DNA from: a virus
Lineage: Duplodnaviria > Heunggongvirae > Uroviricota > Caudoviricetes
Length of the DNA: 11,400 nt
Virus record (IMG/VR): IMGVR_UViG_2654587571_000016
Reading direction: 5' to 3' (one strand)
Made by a program: the position numbers and the translations under genes. This document shows, in pieces, positions 1 through 11,400 of the stretch; the first letter of the stretch is position 1; each line of letters begins with the position of its first letter. Below the pieces are notes generated by a model. That model did no database searches. It saw nothing but the letters and a program-made list of their open reading frames with translations, and had not been told where the DNA came from.

Positions 1-696
1 GCCTTCATCAGTGGTAAGGCACCGGAAATCAAACCCTCGCCCGGCGGCAACACGCCATCGGGTCCGTCTGCAGATACGTCCGTTCGCACAATCTCCCTGC
101 TGCCGGCAGCCGGAGAGGCTGCTGCGCAGGGCTGGAGCATTAAGGATGGCGGAATTCAGTTGTCAGATGGTGTATTTAAGATCACCAAGCAGAGCAATAA
201 AACCTGGTCCCTGACGCATCCGGTGGATGACGCAATTACCCTGCTGACACAGGGCGGCAGACTGACCTGTAAGTTCCGCCTGTCAGGCGCACTGACCAAC
301 AATCAGTTCGGTCTGGGAATTTATCTGTATACCGATGTAGCGTTACCTGACGTCGTGGCGATGACCGGGACTGGTAACCCGTTCCTGATGTCGTTCTTCA
401 CCCAGACCACAGACGGCAAACTGAATCTGATGCATCACAAGAAAGCAGGAAACACAAAGTTGGGCGAGTTCGGGAATTACAGTAACGACTGGCAGACGCT
501 GGAGCTGGTGTTCACCGCCAGCAGTGCCACGGTTACTCCGAAACTGAATGGAGTGGCTGGCCCGGCATTCCAGGTCATAAAAGACAGTCTGACACTGGGG
601 CTGAATGCACTGACGCTGACGGATATTACCAAAAATGCAACGTATGGCGTTGAGATAGAAAGTCTGGTGCTGGAAATAAATAGTCCTGCAGCGTAA
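1..696 (+). CDS. Hypothetical protein, 5'-truncated by the window edge (at least 231 aa); predicted beta-rich, function unknown
   Basis: Frame 1 is open from base 1 to the TAA at 694-696 (the listed ORF 160..696 is its distal part); followed 24 nt later by the gpR-like gene with a GGAGA Shine-Dalgarno. I do not recognise the family. Confidence 0.55.
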   Translation, partial: AFISGKAPEIKPSPGGNTPSGPSADTSVRTISLLPAAGEAAAQGWSIKDGGIQLSDGVFKITKQSNKTWSLTHPVDDAITLLTQGGRLTCKFRLSGALTNNQFGLGIYLYTDVALPDVVAMTGTGNPFLMSFFTQTTDGKLNLMHHKKAGNTKLGEFGNYSNDWQTLELVFTASSATVTPKLNGVAGPAFQVIKDSLTLGLNALTLTDITKNATYGVEIESLVLEINSPAA

Positions 697-719
697 GGAA
701 GAACAGGAGAGCAAAACAG

Positions 720-1187
720 ATGCTTAAGACAAACAGCCTCCGGAAGGGCATGATTCATGGGTGTCGCTGGTGTCAGGCCAACCCGGAAAAATTCACCATT
801 TTCGTGGAGAGCGGCAACATTGAAACGACCGGAGAAACGCCCTCGTTTGTTTACCGCTATCAGATGGTGATGTTTGTCATGGATTACGCCGGGGAGCTGG
901 ACGACCTCACGCTGCCGCTACTGGCGTGGTTATCCGAAAATCAGCCGCAATTGTTGCTTAATCCGGAGCGTAATCAGGACATCAAATTCTCCGCCGTTAT
1001 CAATGACGATGACAGCGCCGATCTCCTGTTTACGCTCCCTCTGCGGGAACGCGTTCGCATCACGCGCAGCAGTCAGGGGGCACCGCAGGCAGAACACCTG
1101 CAGGAGCCAAAACCCCGTCTGCCATCTTCCGAAGGCGACTGGTCGCATGTATTCCAGGATGTGACGTGGGGTGAAAGCGATGGATAA
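720..1187 (+). CDS. P2 gpR-like tail completion protein (155 aa)
   Basis: ATG at 720 with GGAGA upstream; same length as P2 R (155 aa); sits immediately upstream of S, V, W, J, I, H, G homologs; stop overlaps the next start (ATGGATAA). Confidence 0.6.
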   Translation: MLKTNSLRKGMIHGCRWCQANPEKFTIFVESGNIETTGETPSFVYRYQMVMFVMDYAGELDDLTLPLLAWLSENQPQLLLNPERNQDIKFSAVINDDDSADLLFTLPLRERVRITRSSQGAPQAEHLQEPKPRLPSSEGDWSHVFQDVTWGESDG

Positions 1188-1815
1188 GGCATTCACCCGC
1201 GTGGATGAAACCTTTGAGGCTATCCGCGACAGCCTGAATCAGCAGGCCATCAATAACATCGCCAGAAAGCTGGCACAGGATTTACGCCGCGCCCAGCAGG
1301 CGCGTATCCGGTCACAGAAAGCGCCGGACGGGACCGCGTGGACACCACGCAGACGCCGCGCAACCCGGATACAGGAGCGCATTCGCTTTATCTGGAATAA
1401 CGAAGCACGCACGCTGAAAAACTGGCATCACGACACGGGGAAATACGGGCGAACCATTACCGGGTGGGATGAGGATAAAAACAATATCCGCACGTTTTAC
1501 CGGGATGACATCGACCGCTTTCTGGAAATACGCACCCGGCGCATCAACCAGGACAGCACAAAGCGCGTCCCCATGTTCGTAAAACTGCGCACCGCCCGCT
1601 ACCTGAAAGCCCGTGCAGATGCTTCCGGTGTGACGGTGGGTTACAGCGGCGTGGCCGCACGTATTGCCCGCGTTCATCAGTTCGGTGAGCGCGATCAGGT
1701 TGCGCCGGGCATTTTCACCGATTACCCGGTACGTGAGCTGTTGGGCATCAGTCAGGCAGATGAACGCCTGATTTATAACACGGTGCTGGGCCGGATTGCG
1801 GAGGCTGTACGGTGA
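1180..1815 (+). CDS. P2 gpS-like tail completion / virion morphogenesis protein
   Basis: ATG at 1180 overlaps the upstream stop (alternative GTG at 1171); its TGA overlaps the GTG start of the gpV homolog (GTGA); position and size fit the P2 S slot, though larger than P2 S. Confidence 0.55.
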   Translation: MDKAFTRVDETFEAIRDSLNQQAINNIARKLAQDLRRAQQARIRSQKAPDGTAWTPRRRRATRIQERIRFIWNNEARTLKNWHHDTGKYGRTITGWDEDKNNIRTFYRDDIDRFLEIRTRRINQDSTKRVPMFVKLRTARYLKARADASGVTVGYSGVAARIARVHQFGERDQVAPGIFTDYPVRELLGISQADERLIYNTVLGRIAEAVR

Positions 1816-2393
1816 GCGCAGAACTCATGCGACTGCTGAGCAACATCATCCGCACTGGGATCATCTCTGAAGTTGATGAGAAGTCCTGGTGCGTGCGCGT
1901 TCGCAGCGGCGAACTGGAAACAGGCTGGTTGCGCTGGAACACCACGCGCGCGGGAGCCTTCAATGTGTGGCTGCCGCCATCACCCGGCGAACAGGTGGTA
2001 ATTGCCTGCATTGGCGGCAACCCGGAAACCGCCATGATAATTGGCAGCCTGTGGAGTGATGCCAATCCGGCCCCCGGCAAAAGCCTGAAAGAAATCGTGG
2101 TCAGCGCGCCGGATGGCGCGGTGTTCCGCTACGACGCGGACGCAGGCGCACTGAGCGCCAGCGGCATGAAAACGGCCACCCTGCAGGCATCCGTCAGTGT
2201 GACACTGGACACGCCCGTCGTGGAATGCACAGACCTTCTGAGAACGGCGACGCTTGACGTCACAAAAGGGGGAAAGATGAGCGGCAATATCACGCACAGC
2301 GGCGGCAATTTCACCTCAAACGGCATCACAGTGCATACGCATAAACACGGTGGCGTTAAAGGTGGCAGCGATTCGACAGGAGGCCCGCAGTGA
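1812..2393 (+). CDS. Baseplate assembly protein V (P2 gpV-like spike/hub)
   Basis: 193 aa; N-terminal ...NIIRTGIISEVD... and the C-terminal ...VTKGGKMSGNITHSGGNFTSNGITVHTHKHGG... block match the gpV family as I recall it; GGAGG 8 nt upstream of GTG 1812; GTGA overlap with the W homolog. Confidence 0.85.
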   Translation: MSAELMRLLSNIIRTGIISEVDEKSWCVRVRSGELETGWLRWNTTRAGAFNVWLPPSPGEQVVIACIGGNPETAMIIGSLWSDANPAPGKSLKEIVVSAPDGAVFRYDADAGALSASGMKTATLQASVSVTLDTPVVECTDLLRTATLDVTKGGKMSGNITHSGGNFTSNGITVHTHKHGGVKGGSDSTGGPQ

Positions 2394-2740
2394 CAACCCG
2401 CTACACAGGAATGAACCCGGACGGAACGGGAAACCTGAACGATATGGAGCATCTGAAACAGTCAGTCAGGGACATCCTGACCACCCCGCTGGCAAGCCGG
2501 GTTATGCGACGGGAATATGGCAGCCTTGTGCCCGATTTAATTGACGAACCCATGAATAACACCACTCGTCTGCAATGCATGAGTGCTGCCGTGATTGCGC
2601 TGACACGATGGGAACCCCGCATTGCCCTGGACGCCATCGACGTTGTCTGGAAGGCAGGAGGCCGCGCCGGGGTGACGCTGTCGGGCACTGTCATGCAGAC
2701 CATGCAGAATGTTGAATTAACCATCACGCTGAGGGAGTAA
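2390..2740 (+). CDS. Baseplate wedge protein W (P2 gpW / T4 gp25-like)
   Basis: 116 aa, the size of P2 W (115 aa); AGGAGG 7 nt upstream of GTG 2390; gp25/GPW-like sequence; directly followed by the gpJ homolog. Confidence 0.8.
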   Translation: MTTRYTGMNPDGTGNLNDMEHLKQSVRDILTTPLASRVMRREYGSLVPDLIDEPMNNTTRLQCMSAAVIALTRWEPRIALDAIDVVWKAGGRAGVTLSGTVMQTMQNVELTITLRE

Positions 2741-2743
2741 ATC

Positions 2744-3640
2744 ATGCCTGCCGTTGACCTTTCCCAGTTACCGGAACCCGCCATCATCGCGGAGCCTGAC
2801 TTTGAGGCAATTCTGGCTGACACAAAGGCCATGATGATTGCGTCCTATCCTGCCGAACAGCGTGAAGCCGTCTCCGCCGCGCTGGAGCTGGAATCGGAAC
2901 CCCTGAACGTTATCGCCCAGACAACAGCGTTTCGTGAAATGCTGTTACGCCAGCGGGTCAATGAGGGGGCACGCGCCTGCATGTTAAGCCACAGCGCCGG
3001 GACAGACCTGGACAACCTCGCGGGCAATATGAACACAAAGCGCCTGACCATCACTCCGGCAACGGATACCACCGACGCAGTGATGGAAAGTGACACCTCG
3101 CTGAGACTGCGGGCGCAGCGGGCGTACGATGGCCTGAGTGTTGCTGGCCCGTCAGGTGCATACGAGTATTTTGCCCGCAGCGCCAGCGGTCTGGTGCGTG
3201 ATGCGCGGGCTATCAGTCCGTCTCCGGCAAATGTGACGGTTTCCATCCTGTCCACTGAAGGCGACGGCACAGCAACGGAGGCGTTGCTTAATACCGTTCG
3301 CGCCGTTCTGAATGCAGAGGATACCCGCCCGGTGGCCGACCGCCTGACGGTACAGAGCGCCAGAATCGTGACATGGCGGCTGAATGCAAAACTGTACTTT
3401 TACCCCGGCCCGGAATCCGAACCTATTCTGGCGGCGGCTGAATCGTCGTTCAGGAAGTGGCTGGCTGAGCAGGGGCTTATCGGTCAGGACGTGGCGTTGT
3501 CCGCCATTGCTGCCGCACTGCATGTGCACGGTGTGCAACGCGTGGAGATAATCGAACCCACACAGAATATGGCCATCAGCGACATACAGGCGGCGCGCTG
3601 TGAGTCGTTCACCATCAGCGAAGGTGGGCGCAATGAGTAA
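2744..3640 (+). CDS. Baseplate assembly protein J (P2 gpJ-like)
   Basis: 298 aa (P2 J is about 302 aa); ATG 2744 with GAGGGAG upstream; stop overlaps the gpI start (ATGAGTAA). Confidence 0.85.
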   Translation: MPAVDLSQLPEPAIIAEPDFEAILADTKAMMIASYPAEQREAVSAALELESEPLNVIAQTTAFREMLLRQRVNEGARACMLSHSAGTDLDNLAGNMNTKRLTITPATDTTDAVMESDTSLRLRAQRAYDGLSVAGPSGAYEYFARSASGLVRDARAISPSPANVTVSILSTEGDGTATEALLNTVRAVLNAEDTRPVADRLTVQSARIVTWRLNAKLYFYPGPESEPILAAAESSFRKWLAEQGLIGQDVALSAIAAALHVHGVQRVEIIEPTQNMAISDIQAARCESFTISEGGRNE

Positions 3641-4163
3641 TTCACTGTTACCACCATCAGCCAGCAGTTTCATGCGTTGTGCCGAAGCTGTCGGAACGCG
3701 CATTACAGACATCCCGGTAGACCTCAACACGCTGTGGTCGCCGGACACCTGCCCGGTGCACCTGCTGCCTTATCTCGCCTGGGCATTTTCCGTTGACCGC
3801 TGGGATCGCAACTGGCCGGAAGAGACAAAACGACAGGTGATTCGTGATGCATGGCTGATACACCGACACAAAGGGACCATCAGCGCACTGCGCAGGGCCA
3901 TTGAGCCGCTGGGATACCTCATTCGCGTGTCTGAGTGGTGGGAGTTCGGCGGAGAACCGGGAACATTTACCGTTGAAGTCGGCACACTGGACAGTGGCGT
4001 GACGGAGGAAATGTATCTGGAAATGGAGCGGTTGATTGCTGATGCCCGTCCGGTCAGCCGCCACATGACAGGGCTGAATATCATTCAGGAAATTCCGGGG
4101 GATATTTTTGCAGCGGCGGCAACTCATGACGGTGAAGTTATTACCATTTATCCGGACGATTAA
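3633..4163 (+). CDS. Tail/baseplate protein I (P2 gpI-like)
   Basis: 176 aa when started at ATG 3633 (the upstream in-frame ATG 3600 lies inside gpJ and is unlikely); AAGGTGG Shine-Dalgarno; same size as P2 I; stop 2 nt before the gpH start. Confidence 0.8.
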
Positions 4164-4165
4164 GC

Positions 4166-6298
4166 ATGAGTACCACAACACGAAAATTTAAAACCGTTAT
4201 CACCGATACAGGTGCCAAAAAATTAGCTCAGGCAGCCGCGCCAGATGGTAAGCCTGTCCGCCTGACTCATATGGCCGTGGGCGACGGTGGCGGCGCGTTG
4301 CCCACACCAGACAGTAAGCAGACCCGTCTGGTGCATGAGGTGTGGCGACACACTGTTAATCGCGTCATCCTGGACGCAACACATCAGAACCGCATTATTG
4401 CGGAGCTGGTTATTCCTCCAGAAACGGGCGGATTCTGGATCCGGGAAATTGGTGTTTTTGATGAGCACGGCGATTTAATCGCGGTGGGCAATACTGCCGA
4501 AAGTTACAAGCCAGCCGTTGCCGAAGGGTCCGGACGTGCACAAACATTTCGCACCATTCTGACCGTATCCAGCACTGCCACTGTGGCGCTTACCGTGGAT
4601 AACACCATGGTGATGGCCACAGTGGATTACGTGGATAACAAACTGAAAGAGCATGAACAGTCACGATGTCACCCGGATGCCTCGCTGACCGCAAAAGGCT
4701 TTGTTCAACTCAGTAGCGCCACTAACAGCGATTCTGAAACGCTGGCTGCAACGCCGAAAGCGGTTAAGGTCGCGTATGATCTTGCTAACGGAAAATATAC
4801 AGCGCAGGATGCCACAACAGCGCGAAAAGGCCTTGTCCAGCTTAGTAGTGCAACCAACAGTACATCTGAAACGCTGGCGGCAACATCAAATGCAGTAAAA
4901 GCTGCCTATGACAATGCTGAAAAACGTCTGCAGAAAGCTAAGAATGGTGAGGATATCTCTGATAAAGACACCTTTACGAAAAATATCGGTGCCTGCCGTG
5001 CATATAGTGCAGAGCTGAATATTGGTGGAGATAGTGAAGCATGGACAACTGCGCAGTTGATTTTTTGGCTAGAGAGTCAGGGGGCATTTAACCATCCTTA
5101 CTGGATGTGCAAAGGCTCATGGGCTTATGCAAATAATAAGGTCATTACAGATACAGGTTGCGGAAGTATTTGTCTTGCAGGTGCTGTTGTGGAAGTTATT
5201 GGCACCCGCGGCGCAATGACCATACGCATTACCACACCGAGTACATCCAGCGGTGAAGGCATCCCTAATGCTCAATTTACTTATATTAATCATGGTGATG
5301 CTTATGCTCCTGGCTGGCGAAGGGACTATAACTCCAGGAATAAGCCAACAGCATCAGAGATCGGGGCGTTACCGTCAGATGGGACAGCAGTATCGTCAGT
5401 TAATCTGGCTTCAAAAGGTCGGCTGACCGCCCTGACAGATAATATGCAGGGGGCCACAGGTCTGGAGTTATACGAGGCGTATAACAACGGATATCCAACA
5501 ACGTATGGAAATATCATTCACCTGAAAGGGATGACAGCCGTTGGCGAAGGCGAATTACTCATCGGCTGGAGTGGTATAAGCGGTGCTCATGCTCCGGCAT
5601 TTATTCGTTCACGACGGGATACGCCCGACGCAAACTGGTCGCCGTGGGCGCAGCTTTACACCTCGGCTCATCCTCCTGAAGAGTTTTATCCAGTCGGTGC
5701 ACCGATTCCGTGGCCATCAGATACCGTTCCGTCTGGTTATGCCCTGATGCAGGGGCAGACTTTTGACAAATCTGCATACCCGAAACTTGCAGTCGCTTAT
5801 CCGTCAGGCGTTATTCCTGATATGCGTGGCTGGACGATTAAGGGCAAGCCCGGCAGTGGTCGTGCCGTATTGTCTCAGGAACAGGACGGCATTAAATCGC
5901 ACACCCACAGCGCCAGCGCATCCAGTACGGATTTGGGGACGAAAACCACATCGTCGTTTGATTACGGTACTAAAACGACCAGTTCATTTGATTACGGCAC
6001 AAAAACTACGAATAGCGCTGGAAATCATTCACACAATATACCTGTTGGTCACACTGGCGCGGGGAATGGTGTATCAGCCGGTTATAACGCTGCGTTAGGT
6101 ACTGGTACCACGTCGAGCGCAGGCGAGCATGCTCACAATGTATATATCGGTGCCCATAACCACACTATCGGCATTGGTGCTCATGCCCATTCTGTCATTA
6201 TTGGTCCCCACGGACACACCATCACCGTTAACGCTACGGGTAACGAAGAAAACACCGTAAAAAACATCGCATTTAACTATATTGTGAGGCTTGCATAA
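4166..6298 (+). CDS. Tail fiber protein (P2 gpH-like N-terminus and repeat region, His-rich receptor-binding C-terminus)
   Basis: 710 aa; the N-terminus (..[45 protein letters not shown]..) and the duplicated ..[21 protein letters not shown].. block match P2 H as I recall it; C-terminus carries repeated HxH motifs (HSHN, EHAHN, AHNH, AHAHS, HGH). Confidence 0.9.
4694..4912 (+). repeat. Diverged internal direct duplication in the tail-fiber gene (two ~87-nt copies, 4694-4780 and 4826-4912)
   Basis: Protein repeats [29 protein letters not shown] / [29 protein letters not shown]; the DNA copies are clearly related but diverged. Confidence 0.7.
5936..6016 (+). repeat. 30-nt tandem repeat, about 2.7 copies, encoding [10 protein letters not shown] units within the tail-fiber gene
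   Basis: Read directly: gggacgaaaaccacatcgtcgtttgattac / ggtactaaaacgaccagttcatttgattac / ggcacaaaaactacgaatagc. Confidence 0.8.
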
Positions 6299-6876
6299 TG
6301 ACATTCAGAATGAGTGAACACTCACGGACCATAAAAATTTATAATCTACTGACCGGAACCAATGAGTTTATTGGTGAAGGTGATGCATACATTCCACCTC
6401 ATACAGGTCTGCCTGCAAACAGTACCGATATTGCCCCGCCAGATATTCCGGCTGGCTTCGTGGCCGTTTTCAACAGTGATGAGGCATCGTGGCATCTCGT
6501 TGAAGACCATCGGGGTAAAACGGTTTATGACGTGGCATCAGGGGACTCGTTATTTATTTCTGAACTCGGTCCATTACCGGAAAATGTTACCTGGTTGTCG
6601 CCGTATGGAGAGTATCAGAAGTGGAACGGCACATCCTGGGTGAAAGATGCAGAAGCAGAAAAACTGTTTCGGATAAGGGAGGCGGAAGAAACAAAAAACA
6701 GCCTGATGCAGGTAGCCAGCGAGCATATTGCGCCACTTCAGGATGCCGTAGATTTGGATATTGCAACGGAGGAAGAGGCATCGTTACTGGCTGCATGGAA
6801 GACATACCGGGTATTGTTGAATCGTGTTAATACAGCGGTAGCAGCGGATGTTGAGTGGCCAGTCGCCCCACAATAA
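6298..6876 (+). CDS. Tail fiber assembly chaperone (Tfa; P2 gpG / lambda Tfa family)
   Basis: 192 aa; C-terminal ..[39 protein letters not shown].. is the Tfa signature as I recall it; start overlaps the gpH stop (TAATG). Confidence 0.85.
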
Positions 6877-6882
6877 AGAGAA

Positions 6883-6912
6883 AAAGCCATCGATTGAAAT
6901 ATAGATGGCTTT
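6883..6912. terminator. Hairpin between convergent genes (possible bidirectional terminator, better for the minus-strand transcript)
   Basis: aaagccatc-N12-gatggcttt, 9-bp stem; on the minus strand it is followed by a TTTTTCTCT run; lies 7-8 nt from both stop codons. Confidence 0.3.
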
Positions 6913-6919
6913 ATGTACT

Positions 6920-7492
6920 CTATTTATACAATACAACACCGCTCTTTTTAGTTATATATGTGCAGTTCGATGGTATATCTTTATTTATAAAAGACATTGC
7001 ACCTATTTTTACATTATCCCCAATTTTACGTGATAATCCAATGATGCAACAATTAGCTCCGATATCAACGTTACTACCAATTTTTACTCTTGAACCAGGC
7101 ATGTCACCATCTATCTGTCCAATGGTAGTATTCTGTCGTAACACCAGATTTTCACCAGCATCAACAGCAAAATGAACAACAATTCCAGCATGATGGGGAA
7201 TTGTTAACCCTTTTCCAATATTTGCGCCCAATCCAATTTCACAACCAAATTTGTTAATTATTTTACTGTTTAACTTTTTGGCTGCTTTCTTATGTAATTT
7301 ATTACCATTAATATACATTTCGTTAGCCAACCGCCACCAGAAAAGGAAATTCCGGTTACGCTGTTTTTTCTCTCTTAAAAGCCTCCAGATATCCATACGT
7401 TTCCGCCGAATTACTTCATATTTCCAGAAGTTTTTTAAATTAGTAGAGTCCCCAAATAAAACAAAGTGAATTGCCATTAAGTAAGACAGCAC
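6920..7492 (-). CDS. Hexapeptide-repeat acetyltransferase (WcaB/CysE/WbbJ-like left-handed beta-helix O-acetyltransferase); low-GC cargo gene
   Basis: Hexapeptide signature ..GCEIGLGANIGKGLTIPHHAGIVVHFAVDAGENLVLRQNTTIG..IGSNVDIGANCCIIG..; by inspection much lower GC than the flanking tail genes. Start uncertain: GTG 7492 has GGAGA 5 nt upstream; alternatives are ATG 7477 and the longest-ORF GTG 7525. Confidence 0.75.
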   Translation of the reverse strand: MLSYLMAIHFVLFGDSTNLKNFWKYEVIRRKRMDIWRLLREKKQRNRNFLFWWRLANEMYINGNKLHKKAAKKLNSKIINKFGCEIGLGANIGKGLTIPHHAGIVVHFAVDAGENLVLRQNTTIGQIDGDMPGSRVKIGSNVDIGANCCIIGLSRKIGDNVKIGAMSFINKDIPSNCTYITKKSGVVLYK

Positions 7493-7648
7493 GATAATCT
7501 CCTTAATTATTATTTCAGACCACACATATTATAAGGTTAAGAGATTATAAAATCCTGTTGTTTGTTATTCAAAAACAATTTTCTGAGAAGGACATACAAC
7601 AGCAAGTCGCCAGTCACCTTCATCAGGAAATTGGCGACATACGTTAAA

Positions 7649-8143
7649 TCAGAGCAGCCCCTTAACTGAGCTGGTCGCGCTATTAAGGGATGATGTCACC
7701 TTATCTTTGAAGCCGGACAACATATCGCTGAACGATGAGGATTGCAGGCGCTCCCGCAAATCCTCATCACAGCGTTCAAGAGTCAGTGAAAATTCTATCT
7801 TTTTCGCCTTACCGTAGCGATCAAACTCGGAGCGGGTCGTATTCGTTTCGGTCAGGACATACATGCCGTAAATCTGCCCGACGCCATCAATCAGAGGCCA
7901 GGGCCGTCCTGTATACGCCTGCGTGGTCAGCAGAGACAGCGACACTTCGCCACCTGTAATTTCAGGATAAAGCACACCAGAAAGAACGATGCGATCATCA
8001 CCTGCACCGATATACTGCCAGCTTGCTGAACGGTTAACGCGTTCATTTTTCACATGCCGCCAGCTTTTGTTTTGCTGTAACTGCTGATGCGGCAGCGTGC
8101 GCAGCTCAAAAACAAACATGCCATAGATCATCATCATGGCCAT
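7649..8143 (-). CDS. P2 gpU-like tail protein, orphan and in inverted orientation relative to the tail operon
   Basis: 164 aa; N-terminal MMMIYGMFVFELRTLP..WRH...RVNR and ..WPLIDGVGQIYGMYVLTE..IEFSLTLER resemble the gpU family from memory; normal GC, flanked by low-GC DNA. Confidence 0.6.
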   Translation of the reverse strand: MAMMMIYGMFVFELRTLPHQQLQQNKSWRHVKNERVNRSASWQYIGAGDDRIVLSGVLYPEITGGEVSLSLLTTQAYTGRPWPLIDGVGQIYGMYVLTETNTTRSEFDRYGKAKKIEFSLTLERCDEDLRERLQSSSFSDMLSGFKDKVTSSLNSATSSVKGLL

Positions 8144-8205
8144 GACTCCTCAATCTTTATCGTAAAAGTTTCAATGCTTTTTCCTGCGGAGGTAAGGGAT
8201 ATGTA

Positions 8206-8508
8206 GTGTTCAGTTGGCTGAGAACTTCAACAATTATCAGACGTTTTATACGGACACTAATTAAGATCCCAGCTAACAGGATGTTCAATACCCTTCTGTA
8301 TTTTTTCTTCACAAAGGCCGAAAATACATATTCATCCCCTGAGTGGTGGGACAGGCTCAGTGATAAACAGCGAGAGAATATCGGCAACATGATTATGTCA
8401 GGGGTTGAATTTTTTGGCAGACCTACATCACAGGTTGATCATTCCGTTGATTATAACGCCGCTGCACTTGAAGAGATAACATGCAGCAACAACGAAATTT
8501 GCAGCTGA
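8206..8508 (+). CDS. Hypothetical small protein (75-100 aa), low GC, unknown function
   Basis: ORF with a GTG start at 8206 (GGAGG about 14 nt upstream) or ATG at 8281; no recognisable family; weak translation signals, so it may not be expressed. Confidence 0.3.
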   Translation: MFSWLRTSTIIRRFIRTLIKIPANRMFNTLLYFFFTKAENTYSSPEWWDRLSDKQRENIGNMIMSGVEFFGRPTSQVDHSVDYNAAALEEITCSNNEICS

Positions 8509-8738
8509 ATGTTTACATGCTGTTAGAAAAAGCGGGCTGAACAATCATTTCGGGATTGTAACAGATAAGATGGCACTGCCCGCTTGCTTCCCGATATGCA
8601 CCTCAGCCAATAAACTTATGTAAGCAACCGATTTCCATTTATGCGGAGGTTATCAAAGTTGTTGGAGTTGCGAACTTCCGCTCTTCGCACAAAGCGTACC
8701 GCTAGGTTTGATTGTATTCTGGCTGCGCAAACTGTCAG

Positions 8739-8767
8739 TTGGAGTCTGAGCTATTACAACTTAGAAT
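8739..8767 (+). promoter_or_regulatory. Candidate sigma70 promoter for the ogr-like gene
   Basis: TTGGAG (8739-8744), 17-nt spacer, TAGAAT (8762-8767); about 30 nt upstream of ATG 8798. Confidence 0.25.
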
Positions 8768-8797
8768 AGCGGCAGCACCACGTTAAGGGAGGTCGCT

Positions 8798-9058
8798 ATG
8801 TTCCGTTGTCCGCTTTGTGGCGCATCTGCCCGAATCCGCACCAGTCGTCCGGAAAACGATTCAAACACTGTGCGGCAAAAGTATTACCAGTGTAACAACC
8901 TGGAATGCGGCGTATGCTTCTCAACACTGGAAGCTTTCCATAAATTCACATCAAAACACGCCTCCGGCGTTCACTCTTCGGAAGGTATCCCGTGGCATGA
9001 GCTGCCAGCTTCACACAGGGGAAACAATCAGATGAGTTTGCCTTTACCTCAGAATTAA
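8798..9058 (+). CDS. ogr: Ogr/Delta-family zinc-finger late transcription activator (P2 Ogr-like, with C-terminal extension)
   Basis: MFRCPLCGASARIRTSR...YYQCNNLEC: the CxxC...CxxxxC zinc-finger layout and MF.CPLC start of Ogr/Delta; strong Shine-Dalgarno (AAGGGAGG); 86 aa against about 72 aa for P2 Ogr. Confidence 0.8.
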   Translation: MFRCPLCGASARIRTSRPENDSNTVRQKYYQCNNLECGVCFSTLEAFHKFTSKHASGVHSSEGIPWHELPASHRGNNQMSLPLPQN

Positions 9059-9067
9059 CAGGCAGAA

Positions 9068-9096
9068 TTGCCGGAGTAACAAAAAAACGATAGATT
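9068..9096 (+). promoter_or_regulatory. Candidate promoter for the hok mRNA (long structured leader expected)
   Basis: TTGCCG (9068-9073), 17-nt spacer, TAGATT (9091-9096), about 150 nt upstream of the hok ATG, in line with the long leaders of hok-family mRNAs. Confidence 0.2.
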
Positions 9097-9248
9097 ACCC
9101 GCGGGTGCCTTTCGGCTGATGGTCGGAGGAATACCCGAAGGCCGGATGTGGAAAGGCCCCGGAAAACATTTCTGTTTAACCGAGGCCCTAACATATCTAC
9201 CTTAAGCAAGTGATAGGTTAGCGCCTCTCCAACAAAGGAGCAAGCGCT

Positions 9249-9389
9249 ATGTCGCAAAAATCGCTTACAGCCATCACGTTCTGCGTGACGGTAATCCTCA
9301 TCATCTGGATGCTACACGGTTCGCTGTGTGAAATACGGATGAGCTTCTGGGGAGCGGAGTTTGCGGCGTTCTTACAGTGTAAGCAGTAA
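9249..9389 (+). CDS. hok: Hok/Gef-family type I toxin (46 aa membrane peptide)
   Basis: MSQKSLTAITFCVTVILIIWMLHGSLCEIRMSFWGAEFAAFLQCKQ: hydrophobic N-terminal helix followed by the conserved SLCEIR...AAF(L/M) motif shared with HokA/HokC as I recall them; AAAGGAG Shine-Dalgarno 8 nt upstream; missed by the 60-aa ORF track. Confidence 0.8.
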   Translation: MSQKSLTAITFCVTVILIIWMLHGSLCEIRMSFWGAEFAAFLQCKQ

Positions 9390-9398
9390 GGAAACCGC

Positions 9399-9420
9399 GA
9401 CGGGGGAGCAATCCCCCGTC
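9399..9420 (+). other. GC-rich perfect hairpin in the hok 3' UTR (possible mRNA stability or fold-back element)
   Basis: gacggggga-gcaa-tcccccgtc: 9-bp perfect stem, 4-nt loop, no U-run after it. Confidence 0.4.
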
Positions 9421-9475
9421 AATCGGTTGCTAAGGTTGGCTGAAGTGGCACCCTATCTCACAGACATGAACAACA

Positions 9476-9509
9476 AACCCGCAGCGTAAGAACTGCGGGT
9501 TTTCTTTTT
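9476..9509 (+). terminator. Intrinsic terminator of the hok transcript (possibly bidirectional)
   Basis: cccgcag-cgtaagaa-ctgcggg followed by TTTTCTTTTT. Confidence 0.6.
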
Positions 9510-9577
9510 GGAACAATCACTAGCTAGTGTACCGTTAACGGCACATAATGCTCGCACAACAAACCTGTTAAAAGAGA

Positions 9578-9859
9578 TTACTCAGCATTCTCCTGCTTCC
9601 ATTGCCGGATCATTTCATCGGTAACATCACCCTCATAACATACCACGTCATACCCTCCATTACGGCTATATGCACTGCGTCCACCACATCTACTACCATT
9701 CCTTGCATGATTATAAGGACACGCACAATTGCCTGGATAAGATTCAATGGATTCTTTAATTATTTCTTTTTTGATCTGAGCATCAGACTTTCCTGTTGCT
9801 GCATATCCACTAAAAGATACTAAACAAAGGCAGATTGCCATTAATAAACCACATCGCAT
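9578..9859 (-). CDS. Small secreted cysteine-rich protein of unknown function (about 93 aa, predicted signal peptide)
   Basis: Taking ATG 9859 gives MRCGLLMAICLCLVSFSGYA|ATG..., a signal-peptide-like N-terminus; mature part holds 5 Cys (..PGNCACPYNHARNGSRCGGRSAYSRNGGYDVVCYEGD..). The longest ORF runs to 9973 (TTG/ATG) but that extension is non-hydrophobic and lacks a Shine-Dalgarno. Confidence 0.5.
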   Translation of the reverse strand: MRCGLLMAICLCLVSFSGYAATGKSDAQIKKEIIKESIESYPGNCACPYNHARNGSRCGGRSAYSRNGGYDVVCYEGDVTDEMIRQWKQENAE

Positions 9860-10140
9860 ACCGATACACTCTATTACTAACCAATCATAGCCCACATCAT
9901 AAAATCGAGATGAGGAGTACAATACCTTTAACAAGAAGGTGTCATAACGATAATATGTCGTGCAATTCATCAAAAAAAAGATCTATATCAAAGAGATAGA
10001 ACTCTTATCAGTGCTTCAGACATCGGCATTCGAGGCAGCAGAAAAACAGTAAATCTGACGAATTTGCCTTTTCCCAAGATGTTGTCAGATTAAAAAGATA
10101 GATTAGCGCAGGTACCTGTTGGTGGATTGCAGGAGGAAAA

Positions 10141-10245
10141 ATGAAGTCGAGTGAAAAAATCCCAGAAAAATTTTTGTTTAACAGAGGTCCTGGTTCACTA
10201 TGCGAAATACGGAGGAGCTGCAGAAGAATTCTGCTTCATCCTTAG
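10141..10245 (+). pseudogene. Decayed hok-like paralog (34-codon ORF retaining the SLCEIR motif but lacking the transmembrane segment)
   Basis: MKSSEKIPEKFLFNRGPGSLCEIRRSCRRILLHP; DNA homology to the intact hok both in the coding region (ggttcactatgcgaaatacgga vs ggttcgctgtgtgaaatacgga) and upstream (gatagattagcgca vs gataggttagcgcc); AGGAGG Shine-Dalgarno retained. Confidence 0.4.
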
Positions 10246-10329
10246 AGTTTAAACAGCACGTGCACTACCATTGTTTCTGCATATCGCCACACCATCGCCA
10301 CTCTACCGCCATTGCACAAAATACAAATA

Positions 10330-10355
10330 CGAAAAAACCACCCGAAGGTGGTTTC
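10330..10355 (-). terminator. Intrinsic terminator of the glyW-cysT-leuZ tRNA operon
   Basis: On the minus strand: aaaccacc-ttcg-ggtggttt hairpin followed by a TTTTTT run, about 40 nt after the leuZ 3' end. Confidence 0.6.
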
Positions 10356-10397
10356 ACGACACTGCTTATTGCTTTGATTTTATTCTTATCTTTCCCA

Positions 10398-10484
10398 TGG
10401 TACCCGGAGCGGGACTTGAACCCGCACAGCGCGAACGCCGAGGGATTTTAAATCCCTTGTGTCTACCGATTCCACCATCCGGGC
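10398..10484 (-). tRNA. leuZ: tRNA-Leu (anticodon UAA)
   Basis: The reverse complement matches E. coli tRNA-Leu(UAA) as I recall it (GCCCGGATGGTGGAATCGGTAGACACAAGGGATTTAAAATCCC...GGGTACCA), 87 nt including CCA. Confidence 0.95.
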
Positions 10485-10496
10485 TCGGGAAGAAAG

Positions 10497-10570
10497 TGGA
10501 GGCGCGTTCCGGAGTCGAACCGGACTAGACGGATTTGCAATCCGCTACATAACCGCTTTGTTAACGCGCC
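10497..10570 (-). tRNA. cysT: tRNA-Cys (anticodon GCA)
   Basis: The reverse complement matches E. coli tRNA-Cys as I recall it (GGCGCGTTAACAAAGCGGTTATGTAGCGGATTGCAAATCCG...CTCCA), 74 nt. Confidence 0.95.
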
Positions 10571-10624
10571 AAATTCTTCAGGCCTTTCAGCCAGACATCC
10601 GCTTGACGCCGATGTCTTTTAAAC

Positions 10625-10700
<76 letters not shown>

Positions 10701-10773
10701 ATTCATCAAGCAATCAGTTAATCACTTGATTTTATTATCGTCTGGCAATCAGTGCCGCCGTTCGATGCGTTGC

Positions 10774-10801
10774 ATTCTACTTACCTGGCGCGATGAGTCA
10801 A
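10774..10801 (-). promoter_or_regulatory. Candidate sigma70 promoter of the tRNA operon
   Basis: On the minus strand: TTGACT (10796-10801), 16-nt spacer, TAGAAT (10774-10779), with an AT-rich UP-like stretch further upstream; about 70 nt upstream of the glyW 5' end. Confidence 0.35.
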
Positions 10802-10851
10802 CGATATTTTTCACCACTTTTGATCGTTTGCTGAAAATTACGCCGAAACGA

Positions 10852-11400
10852 TCACTGATCAAGCAAATCTGCACGCGCAGCGCTCAAATATTGCAACATT
10901 GACCACAGAGTCAGTACCGCAGCCACAAAGAAAAGTGCAATACCGGCGTACTCAACCCAAATGTTCGGACGCCACAGCAGCCATGCCAACGCCACCATCT
11001 GGGCAGTGGTTTTCACTTTCCCAATCCAGGAGACGGCCACGCTACTGCGTTTACCCAACTCCGCCATCCATTCGCGTAGCGCAGAAATAATAATTTCACG
11101 GGCGATCATCGTTGCCGCCGGTAATGTCACCCACCAGCTGTGATAATGCTCGGTTACCAGCACCATGGCGATAGCCACGAGAACTTTATCTGCCACAGGG
11201 TCAAGGAAAGCACCAAACCGGGTACTCTGGTTCCAGCGGCGTGCCAGAAAACCATCGAACCAGTCAGTCACCGCCGCGACGCAGAAAATGAGCGCGGCGG
11301 CAAACGGCGACCAGGTGACAGGCAGATAAAAGACCAATACAAAGAATGGGATAAGGATGACACGGAACAGTGTAAGCAACGTAGGGATATTAAATTGCAT
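10852..11400 (-). CDS. pgsA: CDP-diacylglycerol--glycerol-3-phosphate 3-phosphatidyltransferase (phosphatidylglycerophosphate synthase)
   Basis: 182-aa [33 protein letters not shown]... with the CDP-alcohol phosphotransferase motif (DGFLAR..G..LDPVADK); the start codon is the last three bases of the window. Confidence 0.95.

Follow-up and report, generated by a model that had tools for sequence, protein, structure and literature searches.

The stretch of DNA analysed here (the window, 11,400 nucleotides; IMG/VR record IMGVR_UViG_2654587571_000016) comes from a P2-like prophage of Escherichia coli that is integrated beside the leuZ-cysT-glyW tRNA genes and pgsA. The plus strand of the window carries, in this order, a fragment of a DUF6645 gene and the phage genes R, S, V, W, J, I, H, and G/Tfa. 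The interval 6877-7648, which extends exactly from the stop codon of G to the stop codon of the minus-strand gpU gene, is AT-rich and contains a single open reading frame (ORF), annotated as a serine O-acetyltransferase. We consider it highly probable that this gene is a functional cargo gene, or moron, encoding an acetyltransferase other than the serine acetyltransferase CysE. The features of the locus are as follows.

6920..7492, minus strand: acetyltransferase gene, 190 amino acids; RefSeq WP_000954196.1, named 'serine O-acetyltransferase'; PHROG 2154
7499..7504, minus strand: Shine-Dalgarno sequence AAGGAG, 6 nt before the GTG start, as read from the sequence
7544..7572, minus strand: sigma-70 promoter-like TTGAAT-17 nt-TATAAT, from a consensus scan, 10/12 matches
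6873..6912, minus strand: predicted intrinsic terminator of the cargo gene, a 9-bp stem (6883-6912) plus a U-run
7600..7645, minus strand: stable hairpin just past the U stop codon, dG -22.3, z = -3.5, 0/200 shuffles as stable
6298-6876, plus strand: tail-fibre assembly chaperone G/Tfa (Caudo_TAP, E=1e-39), convergent partner of the acetyltransferase gene
7649-8143, minus strand: tail gene U (Phage_P2_GpU, E=6e-39), conserved right flank of the variable slot
4166-6298, plus strand: tail fibre H
5685..6298, plus strand: C-terminal, receptor-binding part of H (~200 codons), left end of a shared mobile block found by blastn

The GC content is 0.341 in 6877-7648 and 0.346 in the coding sequence (0.30 at third codon positions), compared with 0.542 in 1-6876 and 0.505 in gene U. 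The GTG start at 7492-7490 is backed by the N-termini of homologues and by the RefSeq start of the identical gene. The ORF list begins the frame at the first GTG (6920-7525, 201 amino acids); that GTG at 7525 was rejected in favour of the one behind AAGGAG, where both the homologues and the RefSeq entry start. A plausible promoter is the consensus match listed above, and a second TATAAT lies at 7533-7528 on the minus strand. Downstream, the hairpin 6883-6912 begins eight bases past the stop codon on the minus strand and is followed by UUUUUCUCUUU. It folds with a dG of -15.8 kcal/mol and a z of -5.3, none of 200 shuffled sequences being as stable, and a simple terminator scan overlooked it because its loop is 12 nt long. 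The stop codons of G/Tfa and the acetyltransferase gene are 43 bp apart and the U-run extends to the G stop codon, so that the terminator probably works in both directions and stops the V-G late operon as well. The hairpin at 7600..7645 may insulate the cargo gene from the tail operon or serve as a terminator between them; it belongs to the cassette, since homology to sister prophages stops at 7642-7644. The sharp AT-richness of the segment, its convergence with the chaperone gene, and its own Shine-Dalgarno sequence and hairpin/T-run terminator had all been read from the sequence in the original prediction, and each is borne out by these values.

The protein's Pfam matches, to the models Hexapep (E=4e-5) and Hexapep_2 (E=3e-3), do not reach the gathering score. 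Among curated families, the exopolysaccharide acetyltransferase EpsC (NCBIfam NF041874) scores best, with 75.2 bits against a cut-off of 150, followed by cysE (TIGR01172, 61.5 bits against 210.65; PRK11132, 36.7 against 397) and the colanic-acid acetyltransferase WcaB (TIGR04016/PRK10191, 53-54 bits against 195-196), so that every score lies below its cut-off. PHROGs assigns the protein to phrog_2154, whose function is unknown (E=1e-87). In a database search 350 relatives were obtained, most of them Enterobacterales proteins of 180-200 amino acids that are named 'serine acetyltransferase'; 43 of these, with 41-86% identity, make up the family alignment and profile used here. The alignment has 14 invariant columns, R119, Q120, N121, and K183 being among the invariant residues, a family-specific FLFWWRLANEMY helix, and an invariant RQNTTIG motif. 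When the family profile is compared with the PDB, crystal structures of CysE rank first (6wye, E=5e-24), over residues 53-180. The AlphaFold model (pLDDT 85.6) consists of five N-terminal helices followed by a beta-helix with short strands through residues 85-180, and all of its Foldseek matches in the PDB are serine acetyltransferases, with TM scores of 0.6-0.7; a Foldseek search of viral predicted structures (BFVD) gave nothing below E=1. The Hexapep matches, the PDB profile, and the model on the CysE fold place the protein in the left-handed beta-helix superfamily. No Pfam match was found to PF01757 (Acyl_transf_3), the integral-membrane family of the Oac/OafA/NeaT type, and the model is that of a soluble helical and beta-helix protein. 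As the prediction of a CysE/WcaB-type hexapeptide acetyltransferase had proposed, the NCBIfam, PDB profile, and Foldseek results agree, and sequence comparison supports membership in the CysE/WcaB/EpsC clade of hexapeptide acetyltransferases.

The catalytic residues of this clade are retained. His100, which aligns with the catalytic His of CysE, occurs in 42 of the 43 homologues and is kept down to 41% identity, and position 85 (Glu85 in the window protein), which aligns with the Asp of CysE ...VDIHP..., is Asp or Glu in all 43; both the catalytic His and the orienting acidic residue of a serine acetyltransferase (SAT)-type enzyme are therefore present. The gene might accordingly be taken for a minimal but genuine serine O-acetyltransferase, an auxiliary metabolic gene that gives the lysogen more O-acetylserine/cysteine or induces the CysB regulon, with its effect arising from the missing C-terminal tail, which in CysE serves CysK binding and cysteine feedback. 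The name is the one given by RefSeq and in a number of phage records, the nearest solved structures are all CysE both by sequence and by fold, and some distant relatives lie beside cysK and cysS. The residues with which CysE holds serine, however, are conserved nowhere in the family: position 99, where CysE has the Asp of its Asp-His pair, is Pro, Ala, Ser, or another residue and never Asp/Glu, and positions 134/135, equivalent to the Arg-His of ...GDRHPKIG..., are variable. The helical N-domain has only ~80-82 residues compared with ~140 in CysE, the PDB alignments beginning at about CysE residue 139, and the window protein has no Pfam match to SATase_N. The chain stops ~10 residues past the last coil and lacks the CysK-binding tail, homologues being 179-210 amino acids long; moreover, the cysE score is below that of EpsC, and no examined family member stands in a cysteine-pathway context. 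The original prediction had named, as the outcome that would speak against it, best homology to housekeeping CysE with the serine-binding residues kept; the nearest structures are indeed CysE, but those residues, the full N-domain, and the tail are missing. On these absences, and despite the nearest solved relatives, we conclude from sequence and model that an O-acetyltransferase of SAT fold, probably of the acetyl-CoA type, is encoded here, but no serine acetyltransferase. The name in the databases has been extended too far and is very likely wrong, and a serine-acetylating function is quite unlikely.

The gene is under purifying selection, as judged from its coding sequence: the ratio of nonsynonymous to synonymous substitution rates (dN/dS) against copies in P1-like phages is 0.19-0.20, compared with 0.16-0.18 for the adjacent Tfa. 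This bears on the idea that the segment is functionless or decaying DNA that rides a recombination-prone tail-fibre cassette. The 3' regions of tail-fibre genes are recombination hotspots, and a truncated Tfa remnant accompanies the gene at one set of variant loci (L183-185), as hitch-hiking would suggest. A frame that is intact in hundreds of genomes, a dN/dS of ~0.2, the 14 invariant columns, and the persistence of the catalytic His make this explanation scarcely credible.

The site occupied by the gene is a variable slot. Among 5,426 complete E. coli genomes, the acetyltransferase segment is present in 530 (~10%), with 66 of its places on plasmids. The same type of U gene occurs in ~1,400 E. 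coli genomes and is adjoined by the acetyltransferase gene in 495 and by something else in ~900. Similarity to the sister prophages breaks sharply 5-7 bp past the U stop codon, at window positions 7642-7644. At all four inspected sister loci without the gene (L175-L178, ~2000-4480), the slot holds an alternative Tfa', a C-terminal fibre fragment, and a DNA invertase; the second Tfa is opposite in orientation and the recombinase is Cin/Gin-like, as in the invertible host-range cassettes of Mu and P1. In P2-like phages of canonical gene order (L147-150), a 65%-identical homologue lies between G and FI on the opposite strand. The gene shows the hallmarks of a moron, with deviant GC content, presence or absence among otherwise near-identical phages, and a terminator of its own; its promoter is a consensus match.

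The original prediction had placed the gene at the Z/fun position between G and FI of P2. The position after G, the topology of fun(Z), and the homologues of L147-150 in a true G-FI slot uphold this placement, but the neighbour of the gene in the window is U. In complete genomes of the prophage lineage of the window, the FI-FII-E-E'-T-U operon is on the strand opposite to H-G; this operon, at 12773-19606 of the matching locus L001 (which corresponds to the window from 7649 on), is turned round with respect to V-W-J-I-H-G. Because of this inversion, the slot is G-U and not literally G-FI, with the acetyltransferase gene lying between the convergent G and U and running co-directionally with U. 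The arrangement is otherwise that of 'moron position 2' of P2, as defined in PMC3573123, that is, directly after G, on the opposite strand, and convergent, with U in place of FI at the far edge. D and ogr stay on the plus strand in the lineage of the window, unlike in canonical P2 (L179). The survey of this slot that had been proposed thus finds it variable, with an invertible fibre cassette in the four inspected sisters and a homologue at G-FI in L147-150. The further suggestion that the slot is a hotspot of anti-phage genes is not supported, as the experimentally shown antiviral hotspot of P2 is the A-Q (old/tin) locus, for which no acetyltransferase is mentioned (Rousset et al., PMC9122126).

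Other insertions were seen in and near the slot. The variant loci with the 70%-identical gene (L183-L185, 5617-6605) carry, in order, the acetyltransferase gene, an 87-residue Tfa remnant, a gene for a class I S-adenosylmethionine (SAM) methyltransferase, and an intact Tfa, so that the methyltransferase gene is a second moron in the same slot. In E. coli O157:H7 493/89 (L173, 3509-4411), a 300-residue macro-domain protein of the ADP-ribose-binding type is encoded between H and Tfa, which is an unusual place.

The acetyltransferase gene moves together with the tip of the tail fibre and its chaperone. By blastn, window 5685-7484 is 94.2% identical to a segment of the P1-like phage-plasmid JL22 (L002, 7808-6009). 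This 1.8-kb block runs from the last ~200 codons of H through Tfa and the spacer to the start codon of the acetyltransferase gene; the similarity ends at the 5' end of the gene, the upstream region not being shared, and the left boundary of the block is the same in L129 and L174. In JL22 the gene lies mid-way in the invertible C-segment, between two convergent chaperone genes, and 602-nt inverted repeats flank the segment; inverted repeats that would mark an invertible segment were not found in the window. The generality of this linkage was surveyed in 80 viral contigs and phage database matches, grouped by the similarity of their acetyltransferase to the window copy. A Caudo_TAP gene is convergent with the acetyltransferase gene at 3-53 bp from its stop codon in 12 of the 15 assessable classes (100% to 38% identity), including Citrobacter phiNP and Hafnia phage yong2. 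In two of the remaining classes differently arranged fibre genes lie within 1.5 kb, and one, an N15-like element, has none nearby. Across the classes, Tfa and the acetyltransferase by and large lose identity to the window copies in parallel, though not monotonically and with exceptions. Within H itself, upstream of the part shared with P1-like phages, the region 5900-6100 contains short tandem peptide repeats (a 10-residue peptide twice, then TTNSAGNH), which are followed by multiple HxH motifs near the C-terminus.

The linkage is strong but one-sided: the gene goes with Tfa and not the reverse, the Tfa type of the window being present in 4,376 genomes against 530 for the acetyltransferase gene. 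It could stem from function or from repeated co-transfer at the permissive, recombination-prone 3' end of fibre operons. A role in the tail-fibre biology of the phage itself during lytic growth, in which the enzyme modifies the fibre, the chaperone, or a cofactor, would account for the linkage, for the transfer of tip, Tfa, and gene as one block between P2-like and P1-like phages, and for the position within the invertible fibre segment of JL22. We regard such a role as very improbable. About two-thirds of the sister prophages do without the gene, most carriers of the same Tfa type lack it, in P2-like phages of canonical order it runs antisense to the late operons, and homologues are found on plasmids and islands devoid of tail genes. 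We also know of no described case of fibre acetylation. A more novel but rather unlikely possibility is that the acetyltransferase is a 'receptor editor' coupled to the receptor-binding cassette, acetylating the glycan that is seen by the linked fibre. Fibre tip, chaperone, and acetyltransferase would then be a single host-range module that passes between P2-like, P1-like, and further myoviruses; the lysogen would be shielded from superinfection by phages with the same fibre, and released progeny would be kept off debris. In the lineage of the window, the gene would replace the strategy of alternative fibre and invertase at the slot.

The family extends beyond this setting. Members occur in P2-like, P1-like, phiNP, Hafnia, and N15-like phages and also on plasmids and islands. 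Those without nearby tail genes include a relaxase-bearing Pseudomonas contig, a Pantoea island with IS21 and JetD, and a Salmonella island in which the gene is beside an integrase. A 50%-identical member (L180-L182, 5001-5594) has type IV pilus-like genes (A24 prepilin peptidase, SLT) upstream and copies of the insertion sequence (IS) IS66 around it; L180 is a 113-kb complete record, probably a plasmid, and the two other E. coli records are draft contigs. These contexts indicate that the family is not restricted to phages. In L151 (1591-2445) and L153 (3753-4610), a gene for a YibB/HtrL equivalog (NCBIfam score 360 bits, cut-off 342) is convergent with a 62%-identical homologue and lies between it and the tail-fibre genes, forming a two-gene cargo that hints at a function related to lipopolysaccharide (LPS). 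The E. coli K-12 counterpart of YibB/HtrL is located by the waa cluster for the LPS core. Among distant cellular relatives, glycosyltransferases are the commonest neighbours, although such neighbourhoods are a weak hint as to the acceptor.

An intracellular function is an alternative: the enzyme might be an anti-phage or counter-defence factor or a detoxifying enzyme that acetylates a small molecule, a nucleotide, or a protein. Xenobiotic and antibiotic hexapeptide acetyltransferases are a model for the detoxifying variant. In favour of such a function, the gene stands alone and is AT-rich, the prophage slot that it occupies is the one in which P2 carries the T5-blocking fun(Z), and homologues lie in islands by IS elements, JetD, toxin-antitoxin pairs, and integrases, and beside an Abi gene in ESSI2_ev040. 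Even so, none of the PADLOC-DB 2.0 families was matched at E<=1 when the protein and two neighbouring small ORFs were scanned, so that the defence function that had been raised as a possibility finds no known defence-system profile behind it. A full-text literature search found no hexapeptide acetyltransferase described as a defence system, and the family scores favour the SAT/EpsC/WcaB clade over the xenobiotic acetyltransferases. We judge this alternative unlikely.

The explanation that we prefer, to which we give an even chance when it is stated in full, is that the gene is a lysogenic-conversion moron whose product is a non-serine acetyltransferase acting on a surface-glycan precursor. The segment would be a self-contained, horizontally acquired transcription unit with a possible promoter, a Shine-Dalgarno sequence, one gene, and a terminator. 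Its product would be a soluble SAT-fold enzyme, presumably a trimer by analogy, in which His100, oriented by Glu85, would move the acetyl group from acetyl-CoA to a hydroxyl group. The likeliest acceptor would be a sugar on a cytoplasmic surface-glycan precursor, such as a nucleotide-sugar or lipid-linked intermediate of LPS, O-antigen, colanic acid, or enterobacterial common antigen (ECA). Expression from the prophage would change the cell surface and thereby bring about lysogenic conversion, either as a change of receptor or serotype, as exclusion of phages that use the glycan, or as effects on host fitness. A glycan acceptor is favoured because EpsC gives the best family score and WcaB is also matched, because the YibB/HtrL equivalog is the slot partner in L151/L153, because glycosyltransferases are the commonest neighbours of distant relatives, and because the same slot houses other lysogenic-conversion genes, namely fun(Z) and neaT. 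A recent Klebsiella study has associated prophage acetyltransferases with capsule type (PMC13123978).

Several observations weigh against this explanation. The enzyme is alone, with no glycosyltransferase or flippase partner in the window. Carriers span O26, O103, O111, and O157, which makes a serotype-specific O-unit an unlikely target and a conserved structure a likelier one. Most of the closest relatives on chromosomes, at 40-50% identity, are orphans that stand outside any polysaccharide context, and the distant relatives give a mixed signal, as they include true cysE loci with CysK, CysS, and IspF neighbours. The promoter-like sites are not above chance for an AT-rich stretch (5 against 4.1 +/- 2.3 in shuffled sequence), and the promoter is for this reason graded as plausible only. 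The paper on JL22 describes the gene as being there for an unknown reason (PMC9603915), and that on phiNP lists the homologue merely as 'fitness' cargo (PMC6456863). In the literature on serine or hexapeptide acetyltransferases in connection with prophages, morons, tail fibres, or defence, only annotation-level mentions were found, with no substrate assigned. For the surface-glycan target taken separately, we put the likelihood at even or a little below.

Some further features concern the prophage as a whole. Window 1-8167 corresponds to L001 5125-13291 and window 8168-11400 to L001 20805-24034; ~7.5 kb between U and ogr, present in every matching complete genome, is thus absent from the window at the junction 8167|8168. 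The deletion removes the greater portion of T, along with D, E, E', FI, and FII, and the 5' part of a gene of the YecA/SEC-C family. No microhomology was seen at the junction, which occurs in none of the 5,426 complete E. coli genomes, so that either the source prophage is tail-defective or the window sequence contains an assembly join. At the other end, the window begins within the gene of a 625-residue DUF6645 protein (window 160-696; L001 3943-5820), between the lysis genes and tail gene R, which is a large uncharacterised insert of the late region. A Hok/Gef toxin gene (from the annotation of L001) and a small Cys-rich ORF lie between ogr and the tRNA genes (9246-9386, plus strand, and 9578-9973, minus strand). 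The Cys-rich ORF has a hydrophobic N-terminus and belongs to phrog_27544, of unknown function, and together with Hok/Gef it adds to the cargo at the edge of the prophage.

The acetyltransferase gene is carried by about one in ten complete E. coli genomes, among them Shiga-toxin-producing strains of O157 (including O157:H7), O26, O103, and O111, and it is also present in P1-like phage-plasmids. If acetylation of a surface glycan is its function, the gene would contribute, widely and so far unnoticed, to differences in phage susceptibility and antigenicity among important pathogens, and its co-transfer with fibre tips would mean that a receptor-binding determinant and a possible receptor-modifying enzyme move as a unit. 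If its function is another, it nevertheless remains a common one-gene prophage cargo that is easy to test.

Among known systems, fun(Z) of P2 is the closest in position. Like the gene of the window, it lies directly after G on the opposite strand, is convergent with G, and is non-essential cargo, and homologues of the window gene share its exact G-FI slot; the right flank is FI for fun(Z) and U in the lineage of the window. Fun(Z) is encoded by a lysogenic-conversion gene that blocks T5, but it has 528 amino acids, is not a hexapeptide transferase, and has no sequence similarity to the window protein (BLASTP E=15). A second relative by position is neaT of the P2-like prophage of E. coli CFT073, an AT-rich (~30% GC) acyltransferase moron between G and FI that alters phagocyte interaction, aggregation (possibly via surface structures), and fitness in bacteraemia (PMC3573123). 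Both are single AT-rich acyltransferase genes opposite to the tail genes and of patchy distribution. NeaT, however, is an integral-membrane Acyl_transf_3 protein (PF01757), whereas the window protein is a soluble left-handed beta-helix enzyme, and it would therefore act on the cytoplasmic side and on different intermediates. It represents a different, uncharacterised enzyme family that is much commoner than neaT, which is rare, whereas the window gene is found in ~10% of complete E. coli genomes.

At the level of the protein, CysE has the overall fold of the window protein, in which a left-handed beta-helix follows a helical N-domain; the catalytic His, the acidic residue, and the CoA-binding C-terminal coils of the two align. 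CysE differs in its ~140-residue N-domain, its serine-binding Asp and Arg-His, and its CysK-binding tail. WcaB and EpsC are short SAT-like acetyltransferases of similar size and architecture. Unlike them, the window gene lies outside a polysaccharide cluster, between prophage tail genes, its product scores far below their cut-offs, and it has the RQNTTIG motif of its own. NeuO of prophage CUS-3, a hexapeptide-family O-acetyltransferase of polysialic acid, is the clearest precedent for this soluble class in lysogenic conversion. NeuO is phase-variable via heptanucleotide repeats; no repeats of this type are present in the region of the window gene, and NeuO is not among the 60 best PDB sequence matches, which makes it at most a distant relative. 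A moron that consists of one AT-rich acyl- or acetyltransferase gene and follows G in a P2-like prophage is thus of an already known kind, as the fun(Z) slot and neaT attest. What the present gene adds is mildly new, namely its mis-annotation and its co-mobility, across phage families, with the fibre tip and chaperone, including its place in the P1 invertible segment and its replacement of an invertible cassette.

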